Source of the DNA: Senegalimassilia sp. | Lineage (GTDB): Bacteria > Bacillota > Clostridia > Lachnospirales > Lachnospiraceae | Direction: 5' to 3' | Assembly: GCA_963659315.1 (NCBI GenBank) | Contig: CAVKUD010000001.1 | Span: 2,769-66,768 of the forward strand | DNA: 64,000 nt | Shown here: positions 20,791-45,319 of the stretch, piece by piece | Layout of the letters: every line of letters begins with the position of its first letter | Numbering within the stretch: the first letter of the stretch is position 1 | Position numbers and translations under genes: made by a program | Notes under the pieces: generated by a model | The model's database searches: none | The model's input: only the letters and a program-made list of their open reading frames with translations | What the model was told of the DNA's origin: nothing

Positions 20791-21797
20791 AAAAGACACG
20801 ATTAGGAATAATCTCAGACGACAAGGTGTATGAGGCTCGTCTGGTAAGATTTATTATGAACCATTACAGCAGTCAGATTGATGTGTACGAATACACAGAC
20901 AGGTCTCTGCTGACAGGTAAGGAGGGACTGGATGCATTGCTATATTGTGGGGAATATGATGATGTGAGCCATATTCCCATAAGACCTGTGGCGGTACTTG
21001 TGGATTTGGAGACTGCGTATGAGGGGCAGCAGGAGGAGGGGATTTACATTGTGGAGAAATACCAGGAGGTAAATAAGATAATAGAGGAGGTGCTGGGGCA
21101 TATTTCAGCAGAGGTCAGGCAGGTGAGAGCTGCAGGACAGCTTGTAGCAGAGACACGGATATTTGGAGTATATTCACTGTCGGAAAATGACTATCAATTA
21201 CCATTTACAGCAATGCTGGGGAACATTGTAAGTGAGAGCAGGAAAGCCATTGTGATTGATGTACAGGAAAACAGTGGATTAAGGAAATCCTTAAATATCC
21301 AAAGCCAGAAGGGGCTGGAGGAGCTGATTGTGATGATTGAAAACGACAGGTTTTCAAGGAATCTGTTTTCTGAGTGCATAGTACATGAGGGAAAGCTGGA
21401 TTATATATATCCAGTCATGAATACAGAGAGCCTGTGTGAAATCAGCTCTGCCGCATATATAAGGATGCTTCAGCTTATAAGCCAGGAGATGGGCTATGAC
21501 TGCATAGTGATAAATTTTGGCAGCAGGTTCCAGGGGTTTTATGAGGTACTCAATATTTGCAGCCAGATATTTCTGATTCAGAAGCAGGGAGGCCTGGGGC
21601 AGTGGAGAGAGTACGAATTTATTGAGGATATCAATGACAGGGGCTACAAAAATATGCTGGAGAAGGTTATTAAAATCGAGCCGCCAGTAGTTGCTATGCC
21701 AGTGGAAAGCTGTGAAAAAATTGTTGAGCAGTGGAAATGGACTGAGTTTGGTGACATGATAAGGGGTTTGTCTGTGGGGGCGGTACAGCTTGGATGA
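20787..21797 (+). CDS. Tad-locus receiver-like / ParA-like (CpaE-position) protein
   Basis: Lies between prepilin peptidase and cpaF; degenerate MinD-like C-terminal half. Confidence 0.55.
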   Translation: MKKTRLGIISDDKVYEARLVRFIMNHYSSQIDVYEYTDRSLLTGKEGLDALLYCGEYDDVSHIPIRPVAVLVDLETAYEGQQEEGIYIVEKYQEVNKIIEEVLGHISAEVRQVRAAGQLVAETRIFGVYSLSENDYQLPFTAMLGNIVSESRKAIVIDVQENSGLRKSLNIQSQKGLEELIVMIENDRFSRNLFSECIVHEGKLDYIYPVMNTESLCEISSAAYIRMLQLISQEMGYDCIVINFGSRFQGFYEVLNICSQIFLIQKQGGLGQWREYEFIEDINDRGYKNMLEKVIKIEPPVVAMPVESCEKIVEQWKWTEFGDMIRGLSVGAVQLG

Positions 21798-22659
21798 AAT
21801 AAGTGAAAAGATAAGAAAACAGGTGCTTTCTGATATTGACGTGTCAAGAGACATTGATGATGAAGAGATATGGGACATTATAAGCAGGACAGCCTCTGAG
21901 GAGGTCAAAAAGAAAAATATCAATCTAAAGGACAGGATAGAGCTGGAAAAAAGGGTGTTTGACAGCTTGAAGCGTCTGGATGTGCTGCAGGATCTGATTG
22001 ATGATACTGAGGTCACAGAGATAATGGTTAATGGTCCTGATACTATATTTTATGAAAAAAATGGTTCCATACACCAATATGCAGGCAGATTTTCATCGGA
22101 AGAGAAGATGCAGGACATAATACAGCAGATTGTGGGTAAGCACAACAGGGTTGTAAACCAGTCATCGCCAATTGTGGATACCAGACTTGTGGATGGTTCC
22201 AGGGTGAATATAGTGCTTTTTCCTATATCCCTGGGAGGTTCTGCAATTTCAATCAGAAAGTTTCCCAAAGAGCCATTTGACATGAAAAAGCTCATAGAGC
22301 TTGGGTCTGTCACGGAGGAGGTTTCCAATGTCTTAAAGCTGCTTGTGAAAGCGAGATACAGTATATTTATTTCAGGGGGAACAGGTTCTGGTAAAACGAC
22401 ATTTCTAAATGCCTTATCACAGTATATCCCAGAGGATGAGCGAATAATTACAATTGAGGATTCTGCGGAGCTTCAGCTTCTAGGCGCAAAAAATATTGTG
22501 CGGATGGAGACGAGGAATGCAAATGTGGAGGGAGTTGTGCCTATTACAATCAGGGATTTAATCAGGACTGCCTTAAGGATGAGACCTGACAGAATAATTG
22601 TCGGGGAATGCAGGGGCGCAGAGACCCTGGATATGCTTTCTGCCATGAATACCGGGCAT
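21790..22659 (+). pseudogene. cpaF: CpaF/TadA pilus ATPase, 5' part (codons 1-290), interrupted by the element
   Basis: GGTGSGKTT, TIEDSAEL, LRMRPDRIIVGECRG, then AMNTGH where similarity stops; the frame reads 32 further codons into the element to 22758. Confidence 0.95.
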
Positions 22660-22676
22660 CTAGTTCGAGCATCTTA
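22642..22676 (+). other. attL (host arm, CA crossover at 22657-22658, element arm GTTCGAGCATCTTA)
   Basis: 22663-22676 is a 12/14 inverted match to 44945-44958; symmetry centre falls on the shared CA. Confidence 0.85.
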
Positions 22677-22889
22677 CCAGAGGTCTTACCTATATTCAGC
22701 TATGACTATAGGAAAGCCAATAAACATCAAGGAATACGCGGAGAATGTGCGTTTATAAATAATAAATATATCGAAGCGAGTGTTCTTAACTGCTTAAAAA
22801 AATCTAATTCAAGTATATAGGTAATGAATCAAAAGGTACAGTCTAAATTTTCCAATACGCAAAAATTTAATAGAAAAGGAGCGATAGCT

Positions 22890-23357
22890 ATGAGAATACA
22901 GAAATCAAGTCTAATTATGGACAGCAATCATCAAAATATACTTGTAAAGGATTTTGCTAGAAATTACTCAGGCGTGGATAGCTTGCATCAGCCAGAGAAT
23001 ATAGTAAAGGTAATGAATGATGTTTTTAATGTGGCAAATCTCGCCGAAGAATACCTCTATTTAATATGTATGACAACGAGGTGTAAACCTATAAGCATTT
23101 TCGAGGTATCACATGGAACTTGTAATTCTTCATTAGTTGGATGCAGAGAAATTATGATTAGAGCATTATTATGCGGTGCTGTTAATATTGTTATTGTGCA
23201 TAATCATCCTAGTGGAAGTGTACGACCTTCATTAGAAGATGTTAAGGTGACTAAGAAGATAAAAGATGCATCTAAGCTGATAGGATTAAATTTCTGTGAT
23301 CATATTATTATTGGGCAAGATGGATATTTTAGTTTTTCCAAAGCTAATTTACAATGA
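22890..23357 (+). CDS. RadC-like JAB/MPN domain protein (copy 1)
   Basis: EEYLYL...HNHPSG...PSLED...DHIIIG. Confidence 0.9.
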   Translation: MRIQKSSLIMDSNHQNILVKDFARNYSGVDSLHQPENIVKVMNDVFNVANLAEEYLYLICMTTRCKPISIFEVSHGTCNSSLVGCREIMIRALLCGAVNIVIVHNHPSGSVRPSLEDVKVTKKIKDASKLIGLNFCDHIIIGQDGYFSFSKANLQ

Positions 23358-23414
23358 TGTATTTGGTAGAAAAATCGTGGTGAAAAACTATATGTTGTAA
23401 AATTGAAAAAAATA

Positions 23415-23443
23415 TTGACAAGTTTCCCTTTTGGGGTTAAAAT
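23415..23443 (+). promoter_or_regulatory. Sigma-A promoter for the HTH-ImmA operon
   Basis: TTGACA-N17-TAAAAT; CCC-TTTT-GGG dyad in the spacer (possible operator). Confidence 0.7.
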
Positions 23444-23476
23444 TATTTCAGAAATCGGAAAAAGGAGGAATGAGCT

Positions 23477-23827
23477 ATGGCAAATAAATTGGGTATTTTT
23501 TGTCGAAAGCTTAGATTAGAAAGAGGAGAGCTTCTTTATGATATGGCACAGAAACTAGGTGTATCATCCGCATTTCTATCAAAAGTTGAAAATGGTAAAA
23601 AGAAACCTCCAGTACAATGGAAACAGATAATTATTTCAGAATATCAATTATCTGGTAGTAGGCTGGAAGAATTTGAAGAATGTTTCTTTGATGCAATTAA
23701 TGCTGATAGTATTGATATAAGTGCATATGAGGAATCAGATAAGGAATTGATGTTATCATTTGCACGTAAGTTTGATGCTCTAGATAAGGCAATGATCAGA
23801 AGAATGTTGGATAAAGAGGAGGAATAA
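23477..23827 (+). CDS. XRE-family HTH regulator
   Basis: LYDMAQKLGVSSAFLSKVENGKK helix-turn-helix. Confidence 0.9.
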   Translation: MANKLGIFCRKLRLERGELLYDMAQKLGVSSAFLSKVENGKKKPPVQWKQIIISEYQLSGSRLEEFEECFFDAINADSIDISAYEESDKELMLSFARKFDALDKAMIRRMLDKEEE

Positions 23828-23830
23828 TGC

Positions 23831-24331
23831 ATGAATGTATCGGCTAGTCCACGTTCAAGAGAAAGAATTCGAGAAATGGCTAAATGGGTGCGAGAACAAT
23901 TACATATGAAAGATAGATTGGAGTTTCCTATTGTCGAGGTAATAGAGTTACTTGCAGCTGATGATGAAGAAGAATTTGACTATGAAATTGTAAGTCCTGG
24001 CGAAATGATTGATACTTACGGAACTACTAATACATATAGCAATATCATGAAAATTCGTGAGAACGTATATGAAGGTGCTATACAAGGTAATCCACGTGAT
24101 AGATTTACATTATGCCATGAATTTGGACATTGGTTTCTTCATCAGCCAGAAAGTGTGAGTTTTGCAAGAGGTAGTATACCAAAGTATTGTGATCCAGAGT
24201 GGCAAGCAAATACATTTGCAGCTGAATTAATGGTTCCGTATTATCTTGTAGATGGGATGAGTGTGGAAGAGATTGTTGAAAAGTGCGGAGTCTCTTATTC
24301 ATGTGCCAGTATTCAGATGAAATATATATAA
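23831..24331 (+). CDS. ImmA/IrrE-family metallopeptidase
   Basis: RDRFTLCHEFGH and EWQANTFAAELMVP. Confidence 0.9.
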   Translation: MNVSASPRSRERIREMAKWVREQLHMKDRLEFPIVEVIELLAADDEEEFDYEIVSPGEMIDTYGTTNTYSNIMKIRENVYEGAIQGNPRDRFTLCHEFGHWFLHQPESVSFARGSIPKYCDPEWQANTFAAELMVPYYLVDGMSVEEIVEKCGVSYSCASIQMKYI

Positions 24332-24363
24332 GATGTTTGGAGATTATTCGTCTCTTAACATAG

Positions 24364-24443
24364 AAAAAACCAAGTACACAATGTACTTGGTCAGTGCTTA
24401 AAAGAACAATGTCAATTAAGCCAGTTTATAATTGTTTCTAGAC
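24364..24443 (-). ncRNA. Predicted ~80-nt antisense small RNA
   Basis: Minus-strand TTGCAT-N17-TATAAT with extended -10 TG (24478-24450); minus-strand terminator ACCAAGTACA/TGTACTTGGT plus U tract (24364-24391). Confidence 0.5.
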
Positions 24444-24507
24444 AACTCAATTATAACATTGACATTATTCTTATGCAACTGATTTTTTGAGAAAGGAGTG
24501 ATGTTCA

Positions 24508-24603
24508 ATGTATATTTTTAGAACATGGATTACAAAGAACGGTCAAAGAATTTATGCCAAGGATTATGGCAAGAAAGCTTTCCGTTTCTGGGTATCAAAG
24601 TAA
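24508..24603 (+). CDS. 31-aa basic/aromatic microprotein MYIFRTWITKNGQRIYAKDYGKKAFRFWVSK
   Basis: GAAAGGAG RBS; below the ORF-track cutoff; translated by hand. Confidence 0.7.
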   Translation: MYIFRTWITKNGQRIYAKDYGKKAFRFWVSK

Positions 24604-24684
24604 ATATATTTAAATTGACAATTTATATTATACAGATAAAAGTACATTACTGGCTTTGTACTTCCTTATCGGAAGGGAGTAAAT

Positions 24685-24804
24685 ATGGCTAAGACGAGAA
24701 GTAGTAACCATGGTAAACAACAGAAAAAGATAGTAACTGTACATGGTTATACAAAATCAAATGGTGTAAAAGTAAAAGATCATAGACGTTCTACACCGAA
24801 TTAA
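24685..24804 (+). CDS. 39-aa basic microprotein MAKTRSSNHGKQQKKIVTVHGYTKSNGVKVKDHRRSTPN
   Basis: AAGGGAG RBS; followed immediately by a terminator. Confidence 0.7.
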   Translation: MAKTRSSNHGKQQKKIVTVHGYTKSNGVKVKDHRRSTPN

Positions 24805-24807
24805 TAT

Positions 24808-24838
24808 AAGGGGCTACTCGGAAAGGTAGCCCTTCTTT
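24808..24838 (+). terminator. Intrinsic terminator
   Basis: GGGCTAC-loop-GTAGCCC then TTCTTT. Confidence 0.7.
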
Positions 24839-24861
24839 AATTTTGAATGTTTCAGGAGGTA

Positions 24862-25506
24862 ATGATGAGTACAATAGAATATAATTTTATAAGATTAAAA
24901 AATATATACGAGGAAGCTCTTCGTTCCTATGATAAATCAGTTGCTTTTGATGTTAAAATAGGAAGAGGAAGATTTCTAATTCTTATGTTTTTATCAGAAG
25001 CTGACGAAAGGGATAGCTTGTTTGTATATATGAGAAACACAATGGTAATGCGAAAATTGAAGATGTATGGTAGTCATAGGAATGGTGATTTTAAAGTATA
25101 TATTTCTGATGAAGTACAGATGCGAATGAAAGCAGAGCTTCAGTTACAGGAGGGAAATGCAACATTTGATTTTGAACGATTTTTAAATGAAGTAAATAAT
25201 GCTATCCCACAGGAAATAACTATGTCTCAAAAAGTTAAAACGCTTAGAGATAATAGAAACATTATTAGAACAGTGGGGATAGATGAGATTGAAAAAACAG
25301 TATTGATTGGCACTAAAGTGTTATCAAAAGGTAAACCACAGGACAGAACTTTGCGTAAATTATACATGTATACAGAAGAAAGTGAAACAGTGATTACAGA
25401 ATTTATTAAGAATCTTAAGAAAGCAAATATGACAGTTGCATGGACAACAGAAGAACAGAGGTTCAAGGCTGCCGATATCAATGCTATGATTAATAGTCTT
25501 AAATAA
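24862..25506 (+). CDS. Hypothetical protein
   Basis: AGGAGG RBS, long ORF, terminator at about 25542-25570; no family recognised. Confidence 0.75.
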   Translation: MMSTIEYNFIRLKNIYEEALRSYDKSVAFDVKIGRGRFLILMFLSEADERDSLFVYMRNTMVMRKLKMYGSHRNGDFKVYISDEVQMRMKAELQLQEGNATFDFERFLNEVNNAIPQEITMSQKVKTLRDNRNIIRTVGIDEIEKTVLIGTKVLSKGKPQDRTLRKLYMYTEESETVITEFIKNLKKANMTVAWTTEEQRFKAADINAMINSLK

Positions 25507-25660: not shown

Positions 25661-25723
25661 TCCATTATGGGAGGTCTCATTTTTTATGTAAGCATTTTAA
25701 GACCAAGGAAAGGAGCGTTAATC

Positions 25724-26353
25724 ATGAAGAGATATGGTTATCACAGAACAAGTACAAGAGAGCAGCATTTAGATAGAGGTATCAAGGAGATTACAGCATA
25801 CTGTGAGCAGAATGGTTTGGAGATGGAAAAGATTTTTACAGACCAGCAGACAGGCAAGAACTTTAATCGTCCGAGGTACCAGGTATTGAAAGAGGATGTA
25901 TTAAGAACTGGTGATGAGTTAATTATTACTGAGGTCGATAGACTAGGTAGAAATAAGCAGGAGACCTTAAAAGAGTTACAGTATTATAGGGATAATGGTA
26001 TTCGTGTAAAAATACTGGAGCTTCCTACTACACTTATGGATTTATCAAAGCTTGATAATGCTATGGCTAGGATGTTGATGGAAACCATCAATAATATGTT
26101 GATTGAGTTATATGCAGCTATGGCACAGGCAGAGATTGAGAAGAAAGAGAAACGACAGCGTGAGGGTATTGATGCTAAGAAGAATCGTGGTGAGTGGGAT
26201 GATTATGGTCGTCCTGCGATTATGTCACAAGATGAGTTCGCAGACCAGTATAAGAAAGTATTGTCGGGAGAGCTTCGCCCCTTTGAGTTAATGAAGCAAC
26301 TTGGTATGAGCAAGAGCACATTTTATAGGTATGTAAAAAAATATATTGATTAA
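25724..26353 (+). CDS. Small serine resolvase/invertase
   Basis: YGYHRTST catalytic Ser, DRLGRN, YGRP and C-terminal HTH (GMSKSTFYRY). Confidence 0.92.
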   Translation: MKRYGYHRTSTREQHLDRGIKEITAYCEQNGLEMEKIFTDQQTGKNFNRPRYQVLKEDVLRTGDELIITEVDRLGRNKQETLKELQYYRDNGIRVKILELPTTLMDLSKLDNAMARMLMETINNMLIELYAAMAQAEIEKKEKRQREGIDAKKNRGEWDDYGRPAIMSQDEFADQYKKVLSGELRPFELMKQLGMSKSTFYRYVKKYID

Positions 26354-26485
26354 AGGCAAAAATTGTTGATAGTACTAAAAAGTCAGATTGCGAGTGAGAA
26401 TGCTCAATACAAATTAGTAATTACAATAATATTGAAAAAAGTAATTATTTTTGAGATAATGATATTCGGAAAGGTTGGTAATTTT

Positions 26486-26677
26486 ATGAAAAGAAAAGAA
26501 GTAATACCTAACCACCATCAAATGACAGAGTTCTTAAGAGGTCAAGCATCAAGAATATTTGATGAAGTGGCAAAAAATGACGAGGTTGTTTTGGTAAATA
26601 AAAATAGTAAACCGCAGAATATCATTATCTCTTATGAAAGATATTGTCGTCTTAAGGAAAAAGGTGCGGATATTTAG
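26486..26677 (+). CDS. Phd/YefM antitoxin-like protein (no cognate toxin adjacent)
   Basis: MTEFLRGQASRIFDEV...VLVNKNSKPQNIIISYERY pattern; promoter TTGAAA-N17-GATAAT at 26432-26460. Confidence 0.7.
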   Translation: MKRKEVIPNHHQMTEFLRGQASRIFDEVAKNDEVVLVNKNSKPQNIIISYERYCRLKEKGADI

Positions 26678-26693
26678 GAGGAATAATTGGACA

Positions 26694-28736
26694 ATGGCAA
26701 AGAAAAATTCAAGTATCGAACCAGAGGTGGAAAGTAGAGCCAATCGTTTGTTAGCAGAAAATGGGGTAAAATGCACCGATAAGAACAAGAGCATAAATAA
26801 TGATATAGAAAATGCATTGGCTACAGCGATATCCAAACAAGGTGGTAAAGGAGGAAACAAGCCAGATATTCAGTTTTTAGCAGAGATAGGTTATAAACGT
26901 TTACCAGTTATGATAGAAGCTAAGGGTACTAAAGGTAAATTGCTAAAAGTGGGTGCTGATGGAACTATTGAGCAAGTAAATGAGAAAAAAGATGGAACAT
27001 TATCTTTCAATACTGTTAATGGATATGCTGTAAATGGTGCTGTTCATTATGCTAAAGCAATTATTAACTACACAAAGACTTGGAAAGATTGTCTTGCGGT
27101 GGGAATAAACGGATATGATGATGCGATTGGAAGACATTTTGAAGAGGCAATCTATTATGTATCTGAGGATAATTTGAATGCACCAATTTTTATAAGCAAA
27201 GATATGAAGTTGCTCTATACACAGAATTGGACAAAGCTTTTTCAGATGGTAGAAAATGCAAAACTTTCAGATGAAGAAAGAGAAGCTATTGTTAGGAAAG
27301 CAGAAGAAAATCTTGAAGTAAAAATAAAAAAAATGCATCAATGCATTTATGATGATGAAGTGCTTAAAACATTGCTTACTACAAATGAAAAACTGTATTT
27401 ATTCTGTGGACTTATAATGGCGGGATTGAAAACTAAAGATGTGGCACCATTAGAAGAAAGTGATTTTAAGGGCAACAAGAAAGAAGATAAAAATGATGGA
27501 ACAGTTATTACAGATCAGATTAAAGTATTTTTAAGCGAAAAAAAGTGTTCTGCTGATAAAGTGGATATGATTTGCGGATTATTAAATTCCGTATTTACCA
27601 AAAAAAAATTGTGGATGCCAACAAATGGCGAAAGCATATTAAAAAAATTGTTTAGAGAGGTACATGATGAAATTATTCCTTGCTTTGAGGGAAATCTTCA
27701 CCTAGACTTTACGGGGAAAATATTAAACTCACTAAATGATTGGGTGAGTATAGACAATGATGCAGAGAATGATGTTGTATTAACGCCTAGATATGTTACA
27801 AAGCTCATGGCAAAGCTTGCACGAACTGGTCGTGATTCTTTTGTATGGGATAAAGCTATGGGGTCTGCGGGATTCTTAATATCTGCAATGGATATTATGA
27901 TTAAAGATGCAAAGGATAATATAACTGATGCAAAAGAGTTAGCAGATAAAATTAAGCATATTAAGGAACAACAATTATTGGGTATTGAGATATTAGGAAA
28001 TATTTATATTTTAGCTGTGCTTAATATGATACTTATGGGTGATGGCTCCTCAAATATTTTGAATGGAAATAGTCATGATAAAGAGTTTACACTTGATAAT
28101 TTATCAAAAGATTTTGAGGATGTATTCCCTGCGAGTGTATTTTTATTGAATCCACCATATTCAGCTGATGGTAAGGGATTTAATTTTGTCGAAGAAGCTT
28201 TATCACAGATGACTAGAGGGTATGCAGCTATTCTAATTCAAGATTCTGCTGGAAACGGACAAGGATTGCCATATACCAAACGTATTCTGGAAAATAACAC
28301 TCTTGAAGCGAGTATTAGAATGCCTTCAGGTTTATTTGGAAACAAGGCAACAGTAAATGTTTATATATTTGTCTTTAAGGTACATAGAGCTCATGAAGAA
28401 GATGATATGGTTACATTCATAGATTTTTCGGAGGATGGTTACAGTAGGCAGAATAGAAAAAAATCATCACAAGAAGTTAATCTAAGAAATACTGATCATG
28501 CGATTGAACGATATGCGGAAGTTGAAGCGATTGTTTTAGGAAAGAAGCCTCAAACAAATTATTACACAACAGAAAATGGACTTGTTGTGAGAGATAGTAT
28601 TTCATTAAATGGTGACGATTGGTTATTTACTCAGCATCAAAAGGTTGATTCAAAACCGATAGAAAGCGATTTTAAGAATACAGTTGCTGAGTATTTTAGT
28701 TGGAAGATTTCTCAATTCATGAAAGGAAGTGTTTAA
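26694..28736 (+). CDS. Type IIB (BcgI-like) restriction-modification alpha subunit (endonuclease plus N6-adenine methylase)
   Basis: PD...IEAK nuclease motif; VVLTPRYV; DKAMGSAGFL motif I; LNPPY motif IV. Confidence 0.85.
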   Translation: MAKKNSSIEPEVESRANRLLAENGVKCTDKNKSINNDIENALATAISKQGGKGGNKPDIQFLAEIGYKRLPVMIEAKGTKGKLLKVGADGTIEQVNEKKDGTLSFNTVNGYAVNGAVHYAKAIINYTKTWKDCLAVGINGYDDAIGRHFEEAIYYVSEDNLNAPIFISKDMKLLYTQNWTKLFQMVENAKLSDEEREAIVRKAEENLEVKIKKMHQCIYDDEVLKTLLTTNEKLYLFCGLIMAGLKTKDVAPLEESDFKGNKKEDKNDGTVITDQIKVFLSEKKCSADKVDMICGLLNSVFTKKKLWMPTNGESILKKLFREVHDEIIPCFEGNLHLDFTGKILNSLNDWVSIDNDAENDVVLTPRYVTKLMAKLARTGRDSFVWDKAMGSAGFLISAMDIMIKDAKDNITDAKELADKIKHIKEQQLLGIEILGNIYILAVLNMILMGDGSSNILNGNSHDKEFTLDNLSKDFEDVFPASVFLLNPPYSADGKGFNFVEEALSQMTRGYAAILIQDSAGNGQGLPYTKRILENNTLEASIRMPSGLFGNKATVNVYIFVFKVHRAHEEDDMVTFIDFSEDGYSRQNRKKSSQEVNLRNTDHAIERYAEVEAIVLGKKPQTNYYTTENGLVVRDSISLNGDDWLFTQHQKVDSKPIESDFKNTVAEYFSWKISQFMKGSV

Positions 28737-29947
28737 TGATGTGGGAAAATTTTGAACTTCAAAAAATTACTACAGTTTCTTCACCGAAGAAAAGATTCAA
28801 TGCTAATACATTGACAATAAACTCTCATCCTAAAGATGGATATCCTTATGTTGTTCGAACCGCATTGAATAACGGTATTAGAGGATACATAAAAGAGGAT
28901 GAAAACTACTTGAATGCTGGTAATACGTATTCATTTGGACAAGATACAGCAACAGTTTTTTGGCAGCCTAATCCATATTTTACTGGTGATAAAATAAAAG
29001 TATTAACACCCACCCATAAATTAACTAATGAAATGGCATTGTTTATATTAATAGCAATAAGAAAAGCATTTGCATTGTTTTCATGGGGGACAGATTCATT
29101 TAATGAGGAAATTATCAAGACAATGAAAATTACCTTGCCTATCAAAAGTGAAGGTAATACTGCAATAATAGATGATACACGTTATTATCATGAAAAAGGT
29201 TTTATGCCAGATTTCGAGTATATGCATAAGTACATAGAGGATATTCAAAAAAAGCAATTCCTTGATCTTGAAAAATATTTGACAGAGCTGAAAATCAATG
29301 ATGTGAAGCTAAACAAAAAGGACAAAAAAATTCTGGCTCAGAAAACAGTAGATAAAGAATTTATTATGCATGATTTGTTTGAAAAGTTAAAAGCTCCATA
29401 TAAGGGCAAAGGGAGAAAACAAGACAATGTAAGCAAAGAAAAAAACATGGAATTTTCATTGCCATTAATCAACTGTAAAGATGGAAACAATGGTGTCATG
29501 TATTATGGAAGAAGAGAAGATTTTACTGTCCATAATAATGTATTATCCATTATATACAATGGACCACCTACAGAAGGACAGACATATTATCAAGAAGAGA
29601 TTGGTGTATATACAGATGCATATATCGTTGGATTGATAAATGATGTTCCTTTGGATAGAGAACTAGGTCTATATTTAACAACAGCGGTTAATAAATCTAT
29701 TCACAATCTCAAGAAGAAGAAGTATTCTAGAGGAAATAAAGCAACGTGGGATAATAAAGTTGAGAATGATAAAATTATACTTCCAATCAAAGTTGAAGCA
29801 GATGGAACTCCGATAATTGATTCTTCAAAGAGTTTTCATAAAAAAGGATATGTACCAGATTGGGATTATATGAGAAATTATATTGTTGCCATAGAAAAAG
29901 AGGTTGTGGCAGAAGCCGTTGATTTTAAAAATGAGATGGTAAGGTAA
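28736..29947 (+). CDS. R-M specificity (beta/S) subunit with two TRDs
   Basis: Overlaps the alpha stop; two repeated halves ending PDFEYM / PDWDYM; NNG motifs. Confidence 0.8.
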   Translation: MMWENFELQKITTVSSPKKRFNANTLTINSHPKDGYPYVVRTALNNGIRGYIKEDENYLNAGNTYSFGQDTATVFWQPNPYFTGDKIKVLTPTHKLTNEMALFILIAIRKAFALFSWGTDSFNEEIIKTMKITLPIKSEGNTAIIDDTRYYHEKGFMPDFEYMHKYIEDIQKKQFLDLEKYLTELKINDVKLNKKDKKILAQKTVDKEFIMHDLFEKLKAPYKGKGRKQDNVSKEKNMEFSLPLINCKDGNNGVMYYGRREDFTVHNNVLSIIYNGPPTEGQTYYQEEIGVYTDAYIVGLINDVPLDRELGLYLTTAVNKSIHNLKKKKYSRGNKATWDNKVENDKIILPIKVEADGTPIIDSSKSFHKKGYVPDWDYMRNYIVAIEKEVVAEAVDFKNEMVR

Positions 29948-30337
29948 TAAATATTTATAGTTTCAAAACACTTTAGATTGAAAAAGTCTAAGGTGCTATG
30001 ATTTTAGGGAAAACCAAGTATTTTTTAAGAGGAAAGAGTATTGTAATTTGAAATTTTTCGAGATACATAATTTATTTAGATGATGATAATGATTAGATTA
30101 AAGGGGTGCTGATTTACGGTCATAATGTCAAGGAACAAGTGTTAAAGAGTACATTTGAAAAGTTTGTAAATTATATAATTCGATATTCATATGAGTCCGA
30201 ATGGTGGGATTATCTGCTGTTCGGGCTTTTATTTATGTTATTGAATTTTGGTGAAGCGTGGCAGATAAGCAAAATTGACCCGTATATATTACTTTAGATG
30301 GCGGAAACCATCTAATAATATGAAAGGGGATTGTGCT

Positions 30338-30826: not shown

Positions 30827-30836
30827 TGACAAGTAA

Positions 30837-32379: not shown

Positions 32380-32412
32380 TTAAATAACATAAGAAAAGGC
32401 AGGTAATAGTAC

Positions 32413-32607: not shown

Positions 32608-32727
32608 CATAGTATTACATTTTCGCCAGTATAGGCAAAAAAATTATATATATTTTTGGAACTAAGCACGTATCAAACCTTAAAAGCAATTCTTAGTTCG
32701 GAACCCCACCCCTCTGTATATGGGTAT

Positions 32728-34387: not shown

Positions 34388-34432
34388 GTCTTATTTTTTT
34401 TTGCCTATTTTTAAAAAACGGAGGATTTTAAT

Positions 34433-34887: not shown

Positions 34888-34899
34888 AAAGGAGATTCT

Positions 34900-35223: not shown

Positions 35224-36103
35224 AAATCAGGATAAAGTAAAAACAGCCCTCAAAAGTATTGATGATAGTTTGGCGACTATCAATACCAACGAGGACTGGA
35301 TGAAATACCTTAAATTTCAATCCTTATTCTACAACTACTCATTTGGAAATGCAATCTTAATTTATGCACAGAGCGGTGGACAGGCTACCTATGTAAAAGG
35401 CTATAAGTCTTGGAACAAGCTTGGACGCTATGTGAAGAAAGGAGCTAAGGGGCTGGCAATACTTGCCCCTTGCTTCCGTAAGGTTGAGCAGTTCAAAGAA
35501 CCAGACAATAAAAATGAGTACCATGATGAGCAGGGAGAGAAAGAGGTCAAGCGTGTTATCAGCGGTTTTAAGGTGACCTATGTATTTGATATTGCAGATA
35601 CGGATGGTTCAGATGAATATATCCCAGTGCTGGTAAAAGGTCTTGCAGGTAATTCCGAAGAGGAAAAGAACATATACGATAATCTCTATCGTGTATTATC
35701 AAAAAAATTTGTGATACAGGATGTAACAGGAACAGCCAGCAAAGGCAGTTACAATCTGGAAACAAAGGTTATCAGCGTGCGTTCTGACCTTGAATACTTG
35801 CAGAGAATCAAGACATTACTGCATGAAACAGCTCATGCGTATGATTTTGCAATGAATCCTGATGATGATATCCCAAGAAACCGAAGGGAACTTATTGCAG
35901 AATCGGTAGCTTTTGTTGTCAGCATGAGACTGGGACTTGATACTAGCAGTTATTCCATGGGTTACATACAGTCATGGCTCAAGGATAAAGAGGAACTAAA
36001 GATTATAGCTGATACTGTACAGAAAGTATCATACAAGATTATTACTACATTGGCAGAGTCGGAAGGCTCTGCTTTTTCTGATTTAAGAGAAAGTGAGGAA
36101 TAG
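35216..36103 (+). CDS. ArdC-like ssDNA-binding / antirestriction protein with zincin domain
   Basis: YSFGNAILIYAQ, GYKSWNKLGRYVKKG, VFDIADT; TLLHETAH and ELIAESVAF. Confidence 0.8.
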   Translation: MSRNQDKVKTALKSIDDSLATINTNEDWMKYLKFQSLFYNYSFGNAILIYAQSGGQATYVKGYKSWNKLGRYVKKGAKGLAILAPCFRKVEQFKEPDNKNEYHDEQGEKEVKRVISGFKVTYVFDIADTDGSDEYIPVLVKGLAGNSEEEKNIYDNLYRVLSKKFVIQDVTGTASKGSYNLETKVISVRSDLEYLQRIKTLLHETAHAYDFAMNPDDDIPRNRRELIAESVAFVVSMRLGLDTSSYSMGYIQSWLKDKEELKIIADTVQKVSYKIITTLAESEGSAFSDLRESEE

Positions 36104-36106
36104 AGC

Positions 36107-37042
36107 ATGAATGCAAATATTTTAGTAGAGACAGACGGATTATCAAGGGAAGAGTGGCTTAGATACCGCAAACAGGGGATTGGTGGAAGTGATGTTGCCG
36201 CCATCCTTGGTATCAGCAAATGGAACAGTGCTATTTCCTTATGGCTCAATAAAACAAACCAGACAGAGGATGATACACAGGAAAATGAAGCTATGGAATG
36301 GGGAACCATCATGGAACCGGTCATCCGTAATCATTTTGCTAAGGTTACTGGTAAGACAGTGGTTGAAGTACATGCCATGTTACAGCATCCAGAATATCCA
36401 TTTATGCTTGCTGATGTTGATGGTCTTACAGAAGATGAGGACGGAAATCCTGCTATTCTTGAAATAAAGACAGCCAGCGAATATAAGCGTTCTGAATGGG
36501 AAGAAGGTGTTCCGACTTATTATCAGACACAGGTACAGCATTATCTTACAGTCACAGGAGTTAAAAAAGCATATGTTGCTGTCCTTATTGGTGGCAATGC
36601 GTTCCGTATCTATGAAGTGGATGCGGATGAAGAGATACAGCAGATGCTTATTGCTGTAGAAAAAGAGTTCTGGAATAAGGTTAAGAACATGATTAGACCT
36701 GAAATGGATGGATCTGATGCTGCTAAGAATCTGTTAGATAACATTTATCATGGCGGGGTTGAGGATGAAATTATACTGCCTGATGATGCTGTTGAATGGG
36801 TGGATGCATACTTTGAAGCATCTGTAGAAGAGGATAATGCAAAGGCAAAGAAGCAGGAAGCAGCTAACCATATCAAGGAGTTCATGGGGGATTATGACAA
36901 GGCAAAGTGTTATGACCATTCTATTTCATGGAAAAGAGTAACCAGTGAAAGGCTTGATACAAAGGCATTAAAAGAGAATGAACCAGAGCTTTACCAGAAA
37001 TATGTTAAGAGCAGTACAAGCAGAAGATTCACATTGAGATAA
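36107..37042 (+). CDS. YqaJ-like (lambda exonuclease family) recombination nuclease
   Basis: WLRYRKQGIGGSD, MLADVDG, LEIKT, YQTQVQHYL. Confidence 0.92.
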   Translation: MNANILVETDGLSREEWLRYRKQGIGGSDVAAILGISKWNSAISLWLNKTNQTEDDTQENEAMEWGTIMEPVIRNHFAKVTGKTVVEVHAMLQHPEYPFMLADVDGLTEDEDGNPAILEIKTASEYKRSEWEEGVPTYYQTQVQHYLTVTGVKKAYVAVLIGGNAFRIYEVDADEEIQQMLIAVEKEFWNKVKNMIRPEMDGSDAAKNLLDNIYHGGVEDEIILPDDAVEWVDAYFEASVEEDNAKAKKQEAANHIKEFMGDYDKAKCYDHSISWKRVTSERLDTKALKENEPELYQKYVKSSTSRRFTLR

Positions 37043-37066
37043 GCACAGAAAGGCAGGATAAACATT

Positions 37067-37924
37067 ATGAGTAAACAGATAGATTTAAAAGCACTACTAG
37101 AGAGCAGAATGGAGAATATAGAGCCGACAGAAACCTCTAAAATGGCGATAGAACGTGCGGAAATGAATGTACCCCACAATCTTATGTTTGATGCAGAAAG
37201 CACAGAATTTAAGCCAGAAACAAAGCCAGTGACAGCATCAGGAGCAAGAGGATTAACAGTAGAAGAGGCAAAGACATTTGATGATGAAATGAACCGATTC
37301 ATTGATACTGTCCTTATTGCTGGTGTCGATTATGGTGTGATACCGCATTGTAACAAACCTACCTTATTAAAATCAGGAGCAGAAAAAATCCTTAATTATC
37401 TTGGACTGATTGCAAGAACGGAAATCAGTAATCGGGTTGAGGATTACAATGTCGGGTTCTTTTCTTATGAGGCAAAGGTCTACCTGATTGATTACAACGG
37501 CGTTGTCAAAGGTGAGGGTATCGGCATCACGAATACCAGAGAAGGTAAATATGCAAAGAGTAATGGTTATGCGGTTCAGAATACAGTCCTTAAAATGGCA
37601 AAGAAGCGTGCGTTGGTGGATGCAGCATTAAATGTCGGTAATCTGTCAGCAAGGTTTACGCAGGATGTAGAGGATATGAATATTGAGCCTGACAGTACAG
37701 GTGGTAAGAATCCTGATGAATTAAAGCAGGGAAGTAAGCCAAAAGCGGAAAAGTCTGTCACACAGAAGCAGATAAAATATCTGGAAACACTTATGAGCCA
37801 GCATAATACATCTGCGGAAGCCATGAACAAATACTGTAAATCAAACTTTGGTGTAGATGATTATAAGAAGATTACAGGTGTTCAGGCATCTACGCTGATA
37901 GAGAAATTTAAAGCTGTTGAATAA
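37067..37924 (+). CDS. Probable single-strand annealing protein (Rad52-like fold inferred)
   Basis: Follows YqaJ; DYGVIP...KPTLLKSGAEKI, NTVLKMAKKRALVDA and C-terminal TQKQIKY motif. Confidence 0.55.
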   Translation: MSKQIDLKALLESRMENIEPTETSKMAIERAEMNVPHNLMFDAESTEFKPETKPVTASGARGLTVEEAKTFDDEMNRFIDTVLIAGVDYGVIPHCNKPTLLKSGAEKILNYLGLIARTEISNRVEDYNVGFFSYEAKVYLIDYNGVVKGEGIGITNTREGKYAKSNGYAVQNTVLKMAKKRALVDAALNVGNLSARFTQDVEDMNIEPDSTGGKNPDELKQGSKPKAEKSVTQKQIKYLETLMSQHNTSAEAMNKYCKSNFGVDDYKKITGVQASTLIEKFKAVE

Positions 37925-38052
37925 TCTGATGGCATAATTTTGTGCAGCGAAATATAGGAGAACTCAAAATTGAGCTGTCCTAAATAATTTCGTATCGGAA
38001 AAGTAGTTTTATTTCACATTCGCTCCTCTATTTTGAGGAATGAAATCATACT

Positions 38053-38084
38053 GGGGATGCAGGATATCTGTGTCCCCCTTTTTT
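38053..38084 (+). terminator. Intrinsic terminator-like hairpin
   Basis: GGGGATGCAG-loop-CTGTGTCCCC followed by T tract. Confidence 0.6.
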
Positions 38085-38101
38085 GAAAGGAGCAAACGAC
38101 A

Positions 38102-38575
38102 ATGGATATAAAAACATATGATTTGATTATTGATACCAAGACCAAGCATACAGCATTACAGGTAAAGGACAGCTTTGCCTATGCTGTTGATAATTTTACA
38201 GAGCCTAAGGCGATATATGACTTAATGACAGATGGATTCCATATGGATAAAAAAGCAGATGAATATGTCTATATGGGGGCATTTAATAACAGGATGAAGC
38301 TTCTTGGAATGTTTGAGATAAGTCATGGTTTGGGAGATTCAAGCCTTATAGATGCAAGAGGCGTGTATATGAGAGCATTACAGATAGGAGCGAGCAATAT
38401 AGTGGTAATACATAATCATCCATCAGGTATTCCGCTTCCATCAAGGGATGACTTTCGTGTGTGCCGTAGAATCAGAGAAGCAGGGGAGCTGCTTGGAATC
38501 CCATTGTCTGATTTTATAGTGATAGGCTGTGATGATTTCGTCAGCTTTCAGGAAAAAGACCTGATGAATCTTTAA
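38102..38575 (+). CDS. RadC-like JAB/MPN domain protein (copy 2)
   Basis: DEYVYM...HNHPSG.PLPSRDD...DFIVIG. Confidence 0.9.
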   Translation: MDIKTYDLIIDTKTKHTALQVKDSFAYAVDNFTEPKAIYDLMTDGFHMDKKADEYVYMGAFNNRMKLLGMFEISHGLGDSSLIDARGVYMRALQIGASNIVVIHNHPSGIPLPSRDDFRVCRRIREAGELLGIPLSDFIVIGCDDFVSFQEKDLMNL

Positions 38576-38928: not shown

Positions 38929-40347
38929 ATGGATTACTTTGATGATAATAAATTGTGCTCTGTTAATGAGTTCTATGACAATGTAAAAAAGTTAAAAAGA
39001 GAGTTGGGAAATAAAGCCACTCTCACAGATAAAGAAGTTGAAGATAAAAAGGCATTATTATTAAGTGCTCAATTTGTTTCTAAAAAATATATTGAATTGG
39101 CACAAGAGTCCCCAAAGGAATATCCAGAAATTTTACCAGAGGATATAATAGGGGAAATGGATTATATAGATGCAGTATATGATTATATGAAGCAACATGG
39201 AGATGGAGGAGATGTATTAAATAGCTATCCTGTTGTTTCATTGGCTATTATGGTTAAAAATACACATTCGGAAATAAGAAATGCAGGAATAGATAATTGT
39301 GTTACTGAGAGAGTTGTGCATGCAGTAGTTCCAGCTATCGAGGCTGTTACATTAAAGGCAGTTTATAATGCACCACAATTCAATGTATCTACATCTGGTA
39401 TAATCAATGCTCAAAAAGTTTTGAATAGATATCCAGAAATCGTAAAGCTTATGACAGATGAGGCGGTAAGAACAGTTTTTACAAATAAAGCTGAAAGGAA
39501 TCAGTGGTCATCATTTACTATATATAAAGGAAATGCATCTGATAATGCATCGTTACTGTTATCTCAAAGCGTTACTGCTGACCCGAATAATAAGGTTTTA
39601 ATTGAAAGTGATTTTTCAATATATGATTGGGCGGTCATGGAAGCGGTAGCGACACTATATGCGTATGCGGAAGAAAATAGTAAGTTAGACAATGGTGCTG
39701 TGGCTATAGATATTCAGAGTATTGATAAGATACTAAAACGTGATGTTTTAATAAGAATGTCGCAAGAAACCAAAAAGAATATCCTGACATCGGATATTGT
39801 AAGAAGTTTAGTAAAATTAATGGGAAATCATGTGGAGATAGTTGATCCGGCAGGAAATCATGCTGGAGATTTGATAGATGGAGAATTAGCATTTGTATCT
39901 AATAAATTATGCTTAATAGTAAAATCTAAACCTGTTCTTTTTAAATATACAGAAAGTAATGGTAGAAATCATTTGGAGAGCATAAAAATAGATGAACTTA
40001 AACTTGATCTGAAAAAAATAAATGCATCATATTCTACAGAAACTGTTGCCATATATAGATTTTTACTAGGGAGATTAAGAGAAATATTTGGTTCATACAA
40101 GATGGACAGTAAACATATGACTCCGAAGCCAAATTATACGAATAGTGTATCGCTTGAAAGTATTATCAGTGCTGTATATCCAGAAGGTTTAGGAAAATTC
40201 AAGGATGCAGCATCAAAGAAGCGATATGTTTTAAATAATACAGAAAAAATCTGTAATGCAATGGAAAACAAAGGAATATTTTTTAAGAAGTGTGAGTTAG
40301 GTAGAAACATGAGAGAAGATTATATATTCATATTTCATAGAAATTAA
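38929..40347 (+). CDS. Hypothetical protein, candidate replication initiator
   Basis: Sits immediately before iteron-like repeats and a DnaB-like helicase; function inferred from position only. Confidence 0.45.
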   Translation: MDYFDDNKLCSVNEFYDNVKKLKRELGNKATLTDKEVEDKKALLLSAQFVSKKYIELAQESPKEYPEILPEDIIGEMDYIDAVYDYMKQHGDGGDVLNSYPVVSLAIMVKNTHSEIRNAGIDNCVTERVVHAVVPAIEAVTLKAVYNAPQFNVSTSGIINAQKVLNRYPEIVKLMTDEAVRTVFTNKAERNQWSSFTIYKGNASDNASLLLSQSVTADPNNKVLIESDFSIYDWAVMEAVATLYAYAEENSKLDNGAVAIDIQSIDKILKRDVLIRMSQETKKNILTSDIVRSLVKLMGNHVEIVDPAGNHAGDLIDGELAFVSNKLCLIVKSKPVLFKYTESNGRNHLESIKIDELKLDLKKINASYSTETVAIYRFLLGRLREIFGSYKMDSKHMTPKPNYTNSVSLESIISAVYPEGLGKFKDAASKKRYVLNNTEKICNAMENKGIFFKKCELGRNMREDYIFIFHRN

Positions 40348-40373
40348 CTGGAAGAAATCGCCTAGCTTAGTTT

Positions 40374-40436
40374 ATTAAAAGTGTAAGGAATAGCTTTTAT
40401 GTTGTTAGATACAGCATTAAAGGTGTAAGGAATAGC
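40374..40436 (+). repeat. Iteron-like 21-bp direct repeats (putative origin)
   Basis: ATTAAA(A/G)GTGTAAGGAATAGC at 40374 and 40416, 42 bp apart, with a degenerate 21-mer between. Confidence 0.7.
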
Positions 40437-40603
40437 ATTGATAAAGTCTCGAAACCGTTGAAAATAGGGCGGTTCGGGGCTTTTTCTTTTTCTATAGACT
40501 TATAGATTAATACCGAGCGATTTCTGGCAATACCAGAAAATCGCATTTGGGTATTAAATTATACCATCAGCTGATACAAAAACAGAAAGGAGTTGATGAA
40601 TCT

Positions 40604-41638
40604 ATGATTACTCAATCAAATGCTCCACCTCAACAAACAGGAGCAGTAACTATTCCTAATGCGAGTGGTGCAATCTATAAGAATAACGTAAGCTTCTATT
40701 TAAAGAAAAATCTTCAACATGAGATTAGTTCATTTATAGCAAGTGGTCAGGCAAAGACAGGATATTCAAATCTGGATGCAGTTATTGGAAAGTTATATCC
40801 TGGATTGTATGTTCTTGGAGCAGGAAGTTCACTTGGGAAGACGACCTTTTTATTGCAAATGGCTGACCAGCTTATAGCAGATTGTGAACCTGTTCTTTAT
40901 TTCACAATGGAACAGTCACAGTTAGAGCTTGTAACAAAGACATTAAGTAGAAGAGCTGCACTTAAATGTAAAACAAATCCTAAAATGGCTAAGACTGCTA
41001 TCCAGATTCGCAGAGGTGATGTTACTCAGGAAGTAAAGGATGCATTTCAGGATTATGTTGCTGATGCAGATATTTTTACGATTGTTCAGGGAGATTTTTC
41101 TACAGATATGACAGAAGTGGAAAGAATTGTAGATGATTATGTAAAGGTAACAGGAAAAGTACCTATTGTTATGGTTGATTATCTTCAGATCGTACAAGAG
41201 GATAGCCAGATGACTGATAAGGCGAAGATTGATTCTATTACAAAGCGTTTGAAAATTCTTCAGCGTAAGCATAATGCAGTTGTGATGGTCATTTCTTCAA
41301 TAAATAGAGCGAATTATATGTTGCCGATTGACTTTGAATCCTTTAAGGAATCAGGCTCAATTGAATATTCAGCGGACGTGGTTTGGGGGCTACAGCTTCA
41401 AATTATAAATGACCAAGCATTTACACAGGCTAAGGGTGTGTCTCAGAAAAGAAGAATGATTGCAATGGCTAAAGCTGCATCACCTAGAAAGGTAGAGCTG
41501 GTCTGCTTAAAGAACAGATATGGTATTGCTTCATATAATTGTGGCTTTTTATATTATCCACAGTTTGACTTATTTACACCAGACCCACAATTTAAAGCAT
41601 CGGCACCAATTTGTCCGACACCACAAATTATTATTTAA
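40604..41638 (+). CDS. DnaB-like (SF4) helicase, C-terminal domain type
   Basis: TGYSNLD, GAGSSLGKTT, MVDYLQ, SSINR, FKESGSIEYSAD, LKNRYG. Confidence 0.9.
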   Translation: MITQSNAPPQQTGAVTIPNASGAIYKNNVSFYLKKNLQHEISSFIASGQAKTGYSNLDAVIGKLYPGLYVLGAGSSLGKTTFLLQMADQLIADCEPVLYFTMEQSQLELVTKTLSRRAALKCKTNPKMAKTAIQIRRGDVTQEVKDAFQDYVADADIFTIVQGDFSTDMTEVERIVDDYVKVTGKVPIVMVDYLQIVQEDSQMTDKAKIDSITKRLKILQRKHNAVVMVISSINRANYMLPIDFESFKESGSIEYSADVVWGLQLQIINDQAFTQAKGVSQKRRMIAMAKAASPRKVELVCLKNRYGIASYNCGFLYYPQFDLFTPDPQFKASAPICPTPQIII

Positions 41639-43226: not shown

Positions 43227-43239
43227 CAAGGAGGAAACT

Positions 43240-44967
43240 ATGAAGAATAAAGAGATTAATGAAATTTATTTATGCGTTGAATACGCTCGTGTTTCTACAG
43301 CTAATGAAGGTCAGAAAGAAAGCTGCGAGAACCAGATAACATTGTGTAATGAATATGTTAAGAAGCATCCAGAATTACAGGTTGTAGGTACATATGTTGA
43401 TGATGCTTTAACTGGCGGTAATGATATTCGCCCAGAATATCAGAAGTTGCTTAATAGAATACAGCAGGGAGACATTCGCTACATTATAGCCAAGAGTACA
43501 AATCGTCTATGTCGTTCTACAGAGGTTGATGGTCAGTTACAAAAGATTTGTAGAGAATATGATGTGATGATTATTTTTGTTGATTCAAATTATATATTTA
43601 ATCCGTTTGATGGAGATGCGGTTACTATGCACTCTATTCAAATGATATTTGACCAGCAGTATATTTATACGCAGTCAAAGAATGGTACTATCGCCCATAG
43701 ACAGAAGTGTGAGAAGAAAATACTGGATGCTACAGATGTAAGATATGGTTATGAATGGGATAAGGAAAATAAGCGTATTGTAGTGAAAGAGAGTGAGGCA
43801 CAGTATGTTAGAAAAATGTTTGATTGGTATGTATTCGGAGGTCTTGGGGTAACAGAGATAGCACGTAAATTAGCAGAACTGGGAGTATATGGTCAAAAGA
43901 GCGGTAAGATTTTAACTGCAAATACTATATCAAGCAGATTAAGTGATGCCTCTTATAAAGGAACTTTCTATATAAATAAGAAAGGCAGCAAATTAAATAT
44001 TGGTGTTGGTGCTAAGAAAATCCGTTTTGATCGTCCGAAAGAAGAGTGGATAGCAGTACCTGGACCAGCAATTATATCAGAAGAACTTTTTGATTTAGCA
44101 CAAAGGGTTAGAGAAGAACGCTGCCATATTTATGATAAGCCTAGTAAGCAATCATCACAGGCACGTTTCAGAGGTACGCATTTATTTTCAGGAAAAGTAT
44201 TTTGTGGTGATTGTGGTACGCAGTTTCATTTTAGATATGCTGATAGAGCTAAGACGATTGGAGAGTATAAGGATTATTTCAGCAAGAAAAAGACATCATT
44301 AGATGCGGTTTGCAATAATAAAAAATACAATCGCATTAGAGAGGAAACATTGATTGAATTATGTAAGTACTCAATAAATGTATTTCTGAAAAATCATGAA
44401 AGCTGTATTGATAATATTGTTGATGTTCTTCGTGAGGCTGGCAAGGAAGCTATGAATGACAATACGCAGATAAAAGCTTATCAGAGAAAGTTGAAAAAGC
44501 TTGATATAGAGCTGAAAAAGAATTTAGAGGCTTGGCGAGATGCTACTGATTCTGATATGAAAGAGGATTTCTTACAGATGTATAAGGCTAATAAGGCTGA
44601 AAAGAATAGTATTGAACAGTATCTGGATGAGATTAAACAACAGCAGTCATCACTTGAAGATATGGAGAAAGAATTACAGGTACTGAAAAATAAGATTGAA
44701 GAGATAAAACAGATAAAGGAATTTGATAAATCTGTGGTAGATAATTTTATAGAAAGAATAATAATAGCCGCAGATGGCAAGGTAACCATTGTATTAAAAT
44801 TTGGAACTACCTTTGATGCCATAATGCAGAATAAAATGCTCTTCACTTATGACGGAAAGGGTGATGAAGATATACCATTTTTAAATTTAAAGTTCATTAC
44901 AGATATATATGAGTTCAGAAATCATATCTTATATTATCAATCGTTAAGATGTTCGGACAGGACATGA
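43240..44967 (+). CDS. Large serine recombinase (integrase)
   Basis: YARVST catalytic Ser, NRLCRS, YGY, PAIISEELF, FSGKVFCGDCG zinc ribbon, coiled coil; stop codon formed at the attR junction. Confidence 0.95.
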   Translation: MKNKEINEIYLCVEYARVSTANEGQKESCENQITLCNEYVKKHPELQVVGTYVDDALTGGNDIRPEYQKLLNRIQQGDIRYIIAKSTNRLCRSTEVDGQLQKICREYDVMIIFVDSNYIFNPFDGDAVTMHSIQMIFDQQYIYTQSKNGTIAHRQKCEKKILDATDVRYGYEWDKENKRIVVKESEAQYVRKMFDWYVFGGLGVTEIARKLAELGVYGQKSGKILTANTISSRLSDASYKGTFYINKKGSKLNIGVGAKKIRFDRPKEEWIAVPGPAIISEELFDLAQRVREERCHIYDKPSKQSSQARFRGTHLFSGKVFCGDCGTQFHFRYADRAKTIGEYKDYFSKKKTSLDAVCNNKKYNRIREETLIELCKYSINVFLKNHESCIDNIVDVLREAGKEAMNDNTQIKAYQRKLKKLDIELKKNLEAWRDATDSDMKEDFLQMYKANKAEKNSIEQYLDEIKQQQSSLEDMEKELQVLKNKIEEIKQIKEFDKSVVDNFIERIIIAADGKVTIVLKFGTTFDAIMQNKMLFTYDGKGDEDIPFLNLKFITDIYEFRNHILYYQSLRCSDRT

Positions 44968-44980
44968 TGGTTCACTGTCA
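44945..44980 (+). other. attR (element arm TAAGATGTTCGGAC, CA crossover at 44963-44964, host arm)
   Basis: Inverted match to the attL arm; host cpaF frame resumes CAT GAT GGT TCA CTG TCA ACA GGT CAT GCA AAT. Confidence 0.85.
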
Positions 44981-45319
44981 ACAGGTCATGCAAATTCGTG
45001 CAGGGATATGCTGTCCAGAATGGAAACCATGGTACTGATGGGACAGGAGCTGCCTCTCAGTGCTATAAGAAGTCAGATTGCATCTGGAATAAATATTATC
45101 ATTCAGCTGGGCAGACTGAGGGATAAATCCCGCAGGGTGCTTGAGATAGCGGAACTGGATGGAATTGTAGATGGCGAGATTGTACTAAACACGCTATACA
45201 AATTTGAAGAGATATCGGAGAAGGATGGCAGAGTTATAGGAGAGCTTGTACAAAAGGGTAAGTTAAAATCCCGGACAAAGCTTGAGGCTGCCGGCATGAG
45301 GGATGTAAATGGACTATAG
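44963..45319 (+). pseudogene. cpaF: CpaF/TadA pilus ATPase, 3' part
   Basis: HDGSLSTGHANSCRDMLSRMETM...QLGRLRDKSRRVLEI completes the ATPase begun at 21790. Confidence 0.95.

Follow-up and report, generated by a model that had tools for sequence, protein, structure and literature searches.

The window analyzed in this work, i.e., the whole stretch of 64,000 nucleotides (nt) from Senegalimassilia sp. (assembly GCA_963659315.1; contig CAVKUD010000001.1, positions 2,769 to 66,768), contains a cpaF (tadA) gene that encodes the ATPase of a Tad pilus and is interrupted by an element of 22,306 bp carrying a large serine recombinase (LSR) gene (Table 1). The element lies between two CA dinucleotides, and the insertion point is the CA of a His codon in the cpaF motif NTGH-DG, such that the 5' half terminates within the first His of the His box by our reading of the motif. 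In silico removal of the element at the CA gave a single open cpaF frame of 1,224 nt and 407 amino acids (aa; 290 + 117). This bears out the description in an earlier note made from the sequence, namely, a cpaF split by a 22.3-kb element and rejoining to 407 aa. The motif NTGH[D/A]G is unbroken in 28 of the 29 best cpaF matches from relatives, and the one exception, G020, is interrupted at another position. In the sister genome G508, both flanks have ~95% DNA identity to the window, cpaF is unbroken (the two halves are 99 and 100% identical in protein), and no close LSR was found. Because the break falls downstream of the Walker A and B motifs, at this His codon of the His box, the interrupted ATPase is very likely non-functional. 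No second intact cpaF was found in the host's own assembly (87% complete), in which two distant ATPases match at only 26-27% identity.

The GC content of the element is 34.8%, compared to 40.5 and 42.4% in the flanks, and no long terminal repeats above chance were identified. The element-side arms form an inverted repeat about the CA (16 of 25 positions), whereas the remaining arm pairs match at 6-10 of 25 positions. Such inverted-repeat arms around a 2-bp core are as would be expected of an LSR attP site. The crossover point also lies inside the LSR gene, which is a point absent from the earlier note; one insertion thus cuts both cpaF and the LSR gene. The frame of the integrated LSR runs across the core into host DNA, and its last 53 codons lie detached at the opposite end of the element.

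Table 1. Features of the interrupted cpaF, the inserted element, and the surrounding tad locus, with positions in the window.
Feature	Positions	Strand	Basis or remark
cpaF/tadA 5' half	21790..22658	+	PF00437 (E 1e-49); Walker A at aa 196, Asp box at 221, Walker B at 269
attL (host arm, CA core 22657-22658, element arm)	22639..22676	+	Arm comparison
Detached last 53 LSR codons	22659..22820	+	In frame with the LSR solely when the element ends are joined
LSR, integrated form, 575 aa	43240..44967	+	Frame crosses the core; stop codon from host cpaF DNA
attR (element arm, CA core 44963-44964, host arm)	44945..44982	+	Arm comparison
cpaF/tadA 3' half, 117 aa from 44966	44965..45319	+	Sequence comparison
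Resolvase-fold protein adjoining the LSR, 222 aa	42558..43226	+	Pfam Resolvase
RadC-like JAB protein, helix-turn-helix (HTH) and IrrE/M78 peptidase pair, 219-aa protein of no assigned family	22824..25506	+	Domain matches
Cargo: small resolvase, Phd/YefM-like protein, type IIG restriction-methyltransferase and specificity subunit, HNH endonuclease	25667..30826	+	REase_MTase_IIG (E 8e-153)
Cro/C1-type HTH regulator, divergent	30837..31154	-	Domain match
Backbone: DUF5688, DUF3848, ArdC-like anti-restriction protein, YqaJ exonuclease, partner protein, second RadC	31303..38575	+	Domain matches
Putative replication module: 472-aa protein and DnaB-like helicase	38929..41638	+	Domain matches
tad upstream: prepilin peptidase	20275-20790	+	Pfam Peptidase_A24
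tad upstream: TadZ-like protein	20787-21797	+	TadZ-like_ARD, below cut-off
tad downstream: tadB, tadC, flp pilin (47298-47465), DUF5702, TadE-like, second peptidase, TadE, DUF6382-FHA	45309..51752	+	Domain matches

The LSR contains resolvase, recombinase, and zinc-ribbon regions (the last just below the cut-off), its residue S19 is invariant in 32 sequences, and its structural model has fold matches to serine integrases. In 12 of 16 related loci, including all 11 with at least 39% identity, the LSR frame reads across the core. We further examined 174 LSR homologues with at least 50% identity and at least 500 aa, which are public proteins from redundant clusters rather than independent events. 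Among these, 91 stop exactly at the core, and 64 have tails that decode as cpaF in a shifted frame (p ≤ 0.02 compared to shuffles). The others comprise nine with an attP tail, four that are too short, four unassigned, and two lacking the motif. In public assemblies, LSRs fused to a tail were found at 99%, 80-82%, and 61% identity, together with two fragments (P0346 and P0347). The names attached to LSR homologues point to Lachnospiraceae as the host family, and a 437-aa protein of Eubacterium plexicaudatum ASF492 belongs to a related cluster.

The tail frame is also open at three left ends in the genome G266, where it is 54-59% identical to that of the window. When the att arm was excluded, the ratio of nonsynonymous to synonymous differences (pN/pS) in the LSR frame was 0.15-0.49 with no stop codon in six of six pairs, compared to 0.86-5.0 and 2-7 stop codons in the other two frames of the region; the frame stays open in 2.4% of shuffles. 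These patterns indicate that the tail is conserved as a protein under purifying selection, even though it is readable from joined ends only. A reading of the tail as the usual C terminus of LSRs that are not split was rejected, as a tail profile found no match among them, although hydrophobic ends of a similar kind can be seen there by eye. Separately, three tail-like proteins of 54-55 aa have their own start codon (P0350, P0355, and P0357), which could reflect either errors of gene calling or versions that exist on their own.

For target specificity, a metagenome scan yielded 79 loci, of which the best 17 (LSR identity 32-80%) were examined. The C-terminal half of cpaF lies downstream of the LSR in 16 of these, and the remaining locus ends at a contig edge. 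Among 400 genomes of the family, all five non-self LSR matches are located at a split cpaF. These results point to the LSR as a member of a cpaF-specific clade. The C-half has a match in 341 of 401 genomes, and the attB sequence is conserved in most genera of the family.

Evidence for mobility came from sequencing runs, of which 4 of the 20 listed were compared as contigs with window positions 19500-39400. In X7 (DNA) and X9 (an RNA library), the host is ~98% identical, and the contigs pass from 22659 directly into the C-half, with 29 of 30 letters matching. The site thus occurs in its empty form in hosts nearly identical to this one. The intact-junction contig of the RNA library is also a weak hint that pili are produced, with DNA carry-over being possible. 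In X1, the first 3.1 kb of the element is present at 99.4% identity and a depth of 9, whereas the DNA of this host has a depth below 1; the remainder of the X1 contig matches the tad locus in 44-nt collinear patches only. This pattern indicates the same element end in the tad locus of a diverged host. In X2, the left end of the element follows 255 unlike letters, which may represent either a host or attP. Moreover, LSRs that are 98-100% identical terminate in several different host cpaF read-throughs. Judging from these comparisons, the element is mobile and polymorphic among hosts.

Other elements also interrupt cpaF. A family-wide search gave 10 short frames among the 149 non-self matches listed (224 further matches were unlisted), and nine of these were fetched: seven have insertions at or near the NTGH motif, one has a frameshift, and one is at a contig end. 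In a genus search, foreign DNA interrupts cpaF in 3 of 135 non-self matches; together with the 7 insertions among the 149 family matches listed, this marks cpaF as a landing site used repeatedly within a major gut family. Since cpaF is recurrently interrupted by foreign DNA, piliation is probably strain-variable through mobile DNA. The occupants found in cpaF are the LSR clade described here, a second LSR clade in the opposite orientation, tyrosine-integrase clusters with TnpV, and further LSRs; in G266, both cpaF paralogues are interrupted by the present clade. Such convergence of unrelated elements on one gene is more in keeping with a landing site than with a domesticated switch.

The individual occupants differ in layout. 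In G020 (L031:2289-4689, contig C5), a different LSR element, which carries divergent HTH regulators, interrupts cpaF past the RMRP motif (aa 267). Complete elements of 13.6-14 kb lie in cpaF in the opposite orientation (L214:1900-15600 and L221:2500-16600; L038 and L039), and these encode a MobA relaxase, a MutH-type nuclease, and a C-5 methylase; their LSR frame apparently enters antisense cpaF. In four genera (L043, L044, L045, and L046; L223, L229, and L230), elements with tyrosine-integrase clusters and TnpV are inserted upstream of NTGH at a distance of a few codons, and their right ends are nearly identical. Several short cpaF frames were rejected as insertions, namely, those in G406 (a frameshift near aa 200 at L047:1594-1601, insertion absent) and in G293, G512, G521, and G523 (contig ends). 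Those in G278, G003, G474, G491, G552, and G573 are at contig edges by their coordinates.

The element carries 28 open reading frames (ORFs), and its cargo and replication genes vary between sister elements. No relaxase or type IV secretion system (T4SS) gene was found among the ORFs scanned, several of which have no assignment, and the element was thus not classified as an integrative and conjugative element (ICE) or an integrative and mobilizable element. The sole PF03432 match of the genome sits on a different contig, outside the element. Likewise, a comparison of the 28 ORFs with PHROGs found no capsid, terminase, tail, or lysis genes, and the element was not classified as a prophage. Viral and phage collections contained no close LSR and no att-arm pattern. 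A free plasmid or phage form was rejected, with best matches of merely 25-31%. A scan for RNA families gave no match, and promoter and terminator signals near the LSR were at the level of shuffles.

The 222-aa protein next to the LSR lacks the YxRxS catalytic motif by eye. In 15 of 18 related loci, it adjoins the LSR. Based on its position and conservation alone, it is a candidate accessory or directionality factor. The 472-aa protein is no more than a lead as a replication initiator (Rep3_N in 2 of 30 look-alikes, with a low recognition score). Between this gene and the helicase gene are two 27-nt direct repeats that are 89% alike and 42 nt apart (40374-40442), which may represent an origin. 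The DUF5688 protein starts with an Asn-rich region of low complexity (33365-33440) that varies across other runs.

Surrounding the element, a full Tad (type IVc) set is present in one locus: TadZ, TadA/CpaF, TadB, TadC, Flp, TadE, and prepilin peptidase (TadZ and TadE with matches below the cut-off). All remaining tad genes are full length, consistent with the claim of the earlier note that they are intact. Compared with G508, the ratio of nonsynonymous to synonymous substitution rates (dN/dS) is 0.00-0.11 for the tad genes (with the exception of one peptidase, 0.41 based on 11 changes) and 0.04-0.20 for the flanking genes. The earlier note had suggested dN/dS as a check; the tad values are indeed low, but they do not discriminate here and were rejected as a test of a switch, because the insertion is recent and most of the divergence from G508 is older than the insertion. 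Ahead of the tad genes (15121-20157) are genes for a kinase, mecA, a flagellin, fliS, and DUF2508, in an order shared with G020.

Taken together, we consider it likely that this is a mobile integrative element with a dedicated LSR, the His box of cpaF as its target, and attP located within the LSR gene. Such a horizontally mobile element would insert by its LSR at the conserved His-box codons of cpaF, and integration cuts two genes: the ATPase loses its final 117 aa, and the LSR loses its conserved tail of ~50 aa. The integrated LSR then ends at a host stop codon or in junk derived from cpaF in another frame, and rejoining of the ends by excision would restore both cpaF and the LSR. Carriers are predicted to be pilus-negative except for occasional excision. 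Since neither a relaxase nor T4SS or virion genes turned up in the element, its transfer would rely on a helper. More tentatively, and by analogy with the integrase of phage Mx8 (PMC4701971; PMC6070905), the long LSR made from the circle may be the integration-proficient form and the short form may be less active, such that the integrated state would be stabilized. The 222-aa neighbour might assist excision, a role we regard as somewhat more doubtful still.

Several observations weigh against this interpretation. The earlier note described the element as precisely excisable. The anatomy of the ends and the joined-end forms in relatives agree with this description, but for this strain neither the empty site (attB) nor the joined ends (attP) are present in its own assembly of 313 contigs. 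The excision product of this exact element was not seen in the runs either, of which the contigs could not span both ends. The attP-form LSRs are known as proteins alone, and their tails differ from that of the window. Two LSRs that are just 80-82% identical bear nearly the same tail as the LSR with 99% identity, and some of the attP-form proteins may stem from tandem arrays, from a swapping of ends, or from chimeric assemblies. For the selection on the tail, the six pairs share sequences, and a single genome supplies three of the four tails. No Pfam family matches the tail, and modelling gave it no confident fold (predicted local distance difference test score, pLDDT, below 50 when modelled at full length and 44 overall when modelled as a fragment). 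In G266 (L237:1150-3570, contig C87), a second left end is nested next to the first, with the ends 2.26 kb apart; the second follows a non-att arm, and the tail is open in both. Finally, the cpaF specificity of the LSR clade is not absolute: an element with a 70% identical LSR lies in a uvrA-like gene (labelled by eye; L034:10446 onward), which is probably a secondary site. In that genome, the cpaF match ends at about aa 198 (L226 and L240).

A related explanation, which would complement rather than replace a mobile element landing in cpaF, is that cpaF is targeted since Tad is a DNA-uptake pilus, and that a disabled pilus shields the element against removal through transformation. Competence genes are overrepresented among LSR targets, as is PF00437, the type II/IV secretion ATPases (15/1069 compared to 2/908), according to the accessible parts of PMC10083194 and its supplement, and a Tad locus is described as needed for transformation in Micrococcus luteus (PMC6668835, seen in part). 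In the present assembly, ComEC is present, no ComGA was found above the cut-off, and the two other related ATPases look conjugative by eye. However, this assembly is 87% complete, our literature searches found nothing on DNA uptake by the Tad systems of this host family, and a conserved but dispensable gene would suit landing regardless of its function. We regard this explanation as plausible but rather unlikely. The second option of the earlier note, namely, that the element disables a putative DNA-uptake or receptor pilus, fits better than its first option of a switch.

That first option is a regulated, reversible pilus switch, in which excision would follow a host signal and the circle, with its full-length LSR, would re-integrate. 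The exact restoration of the frame upon removal and the intact tad genes are compatible with such a switch, the putative replication module could maintain an episome, joined-end forms occur in relatives, and the long LSR would be produced just when re-integration is needed. The active lysogeny at comK in Listeria provides a precedent, as described in the parts of PMC4701971 available to us. However, the element shows no sign of domestication, being absent from ~98% identical hosts and from G508 and present in other hosts, and the same gene is occupied by unrelated elements with different recombinases. Mobility in itself is compatible with a switch, since comK prophages are likewise mobile. On balance, a host-adapted switch appears improbable. 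An extended version, a coupled toggle of two genes, is slightly less probable again: host-triggered excision would restore the Tad motor and complete the LSR, the tail would drive re-integration and end the pilus-on period, and the catalytically dead resolvase-fold partner would set the direction. If true, piliation or DNA uptake across a gut family would be under a reversible control that varies between strains.

Integration may alternatively cripple the LSR and leave a trapped relic, with exit requiring a full-length LSR from an incoming relative, as modelled for archaeal suicidal integrases (PMC8371274, accessible part). The selection on the detached tail and the shuffled combinations of LSR body and tail would be compatible with rescue by relatives. 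However, the catalytic, recombinase, and zinc-ribbon regions are all retained in the short form, many hosts carry near-identical LSRs, and the integrase of phage Mx8 is described as still active after a swap of its C terminus (PMC6070905, accessible part); we thus find a trapped relic quite doubtful. A chimeric join in this fragmented metagenome-type assembly, in which none of the four compared runs spans the exact junction with this host, is hardly credible given that both ends share one CA with matching inverted arms and that the same junctions recur across many independent genomes.

The natural pair of long and short serine integrases makes testable the standing question of whether a self-truncating serine integrase sets direction by its tail, and genetic tools for these commensals could be integrated at the conserved attB.

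No literature on this cpaF-targeting LSR clade was found within our search, outside of which lay subscription papers and the full LSR database of Durrant et al. (2022), which may hold the clade. The main text and supplement of that study (PMC10083194), in the parts seen, do not name cpaF, TadA, or pilus, and three peptide motifs of the clade are missing from its supplement file 3. The study does describe site-specific LSR clades with one shared target gene and an intragenic attB, similar to those seen here. By layout, and as far as they are described in PMC4701971, there is a close likeness to the streptococcal rumA ICEs, which have a serine integrase, disrupt a conserved non-essential gene, carry the att site inside the integrase gene, and have an excised integrase form that differs in length and C terminus. 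In contrast, the present element targets a Tad ATPase, has no conjugation module found, carries a resolvase-fold partner without the catalytic motif, and comes with selection on the tail as presented here. In Myxococcus phage Mx8, attP also lies within int and the C terminus is swapped on integration (PMC6070905, accessible part); that enzyme is a phage tyrosine recombinase with a measured change in activity, whereas the present serine recombinase is known from its sequence alone.

The skin element in sigK of Clostridioides difficile (PMC5025042) and the Listeria comK prophages (PMC4701971) are similar in that an LSR element splits a host gene and excision restores the frame. In the accessible texts, both have demonstrated host-controlled excision and skin also has a proven directionality factor, unlike the element described here. 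Archaeal SSV1-type suicidal integrases (PMC8371274; PMC5861418) are likewise disrupted by their own integration, but these are tyrosine enzymes described there as inactive in two fragments, whereas just the last 8% of the present LSR is detached. The 2021 review among these sources (PMC8371274) states, in the part available, that self-disrupting recombinases are exclusively archaeal, which is already contradicted by the bacterial rumA ICEs and Mx8. Both halves of the design, i.e., an intragenic LSR target and an integrase spanning its own att site, are thus already published (Durrant et al., 2022; Ambroset et al., 2016; and the Mx8 work, all seen in part), and what the present element adds is a clade-wide cpaF target, the frequency of the hotspot, and a tail under selection.

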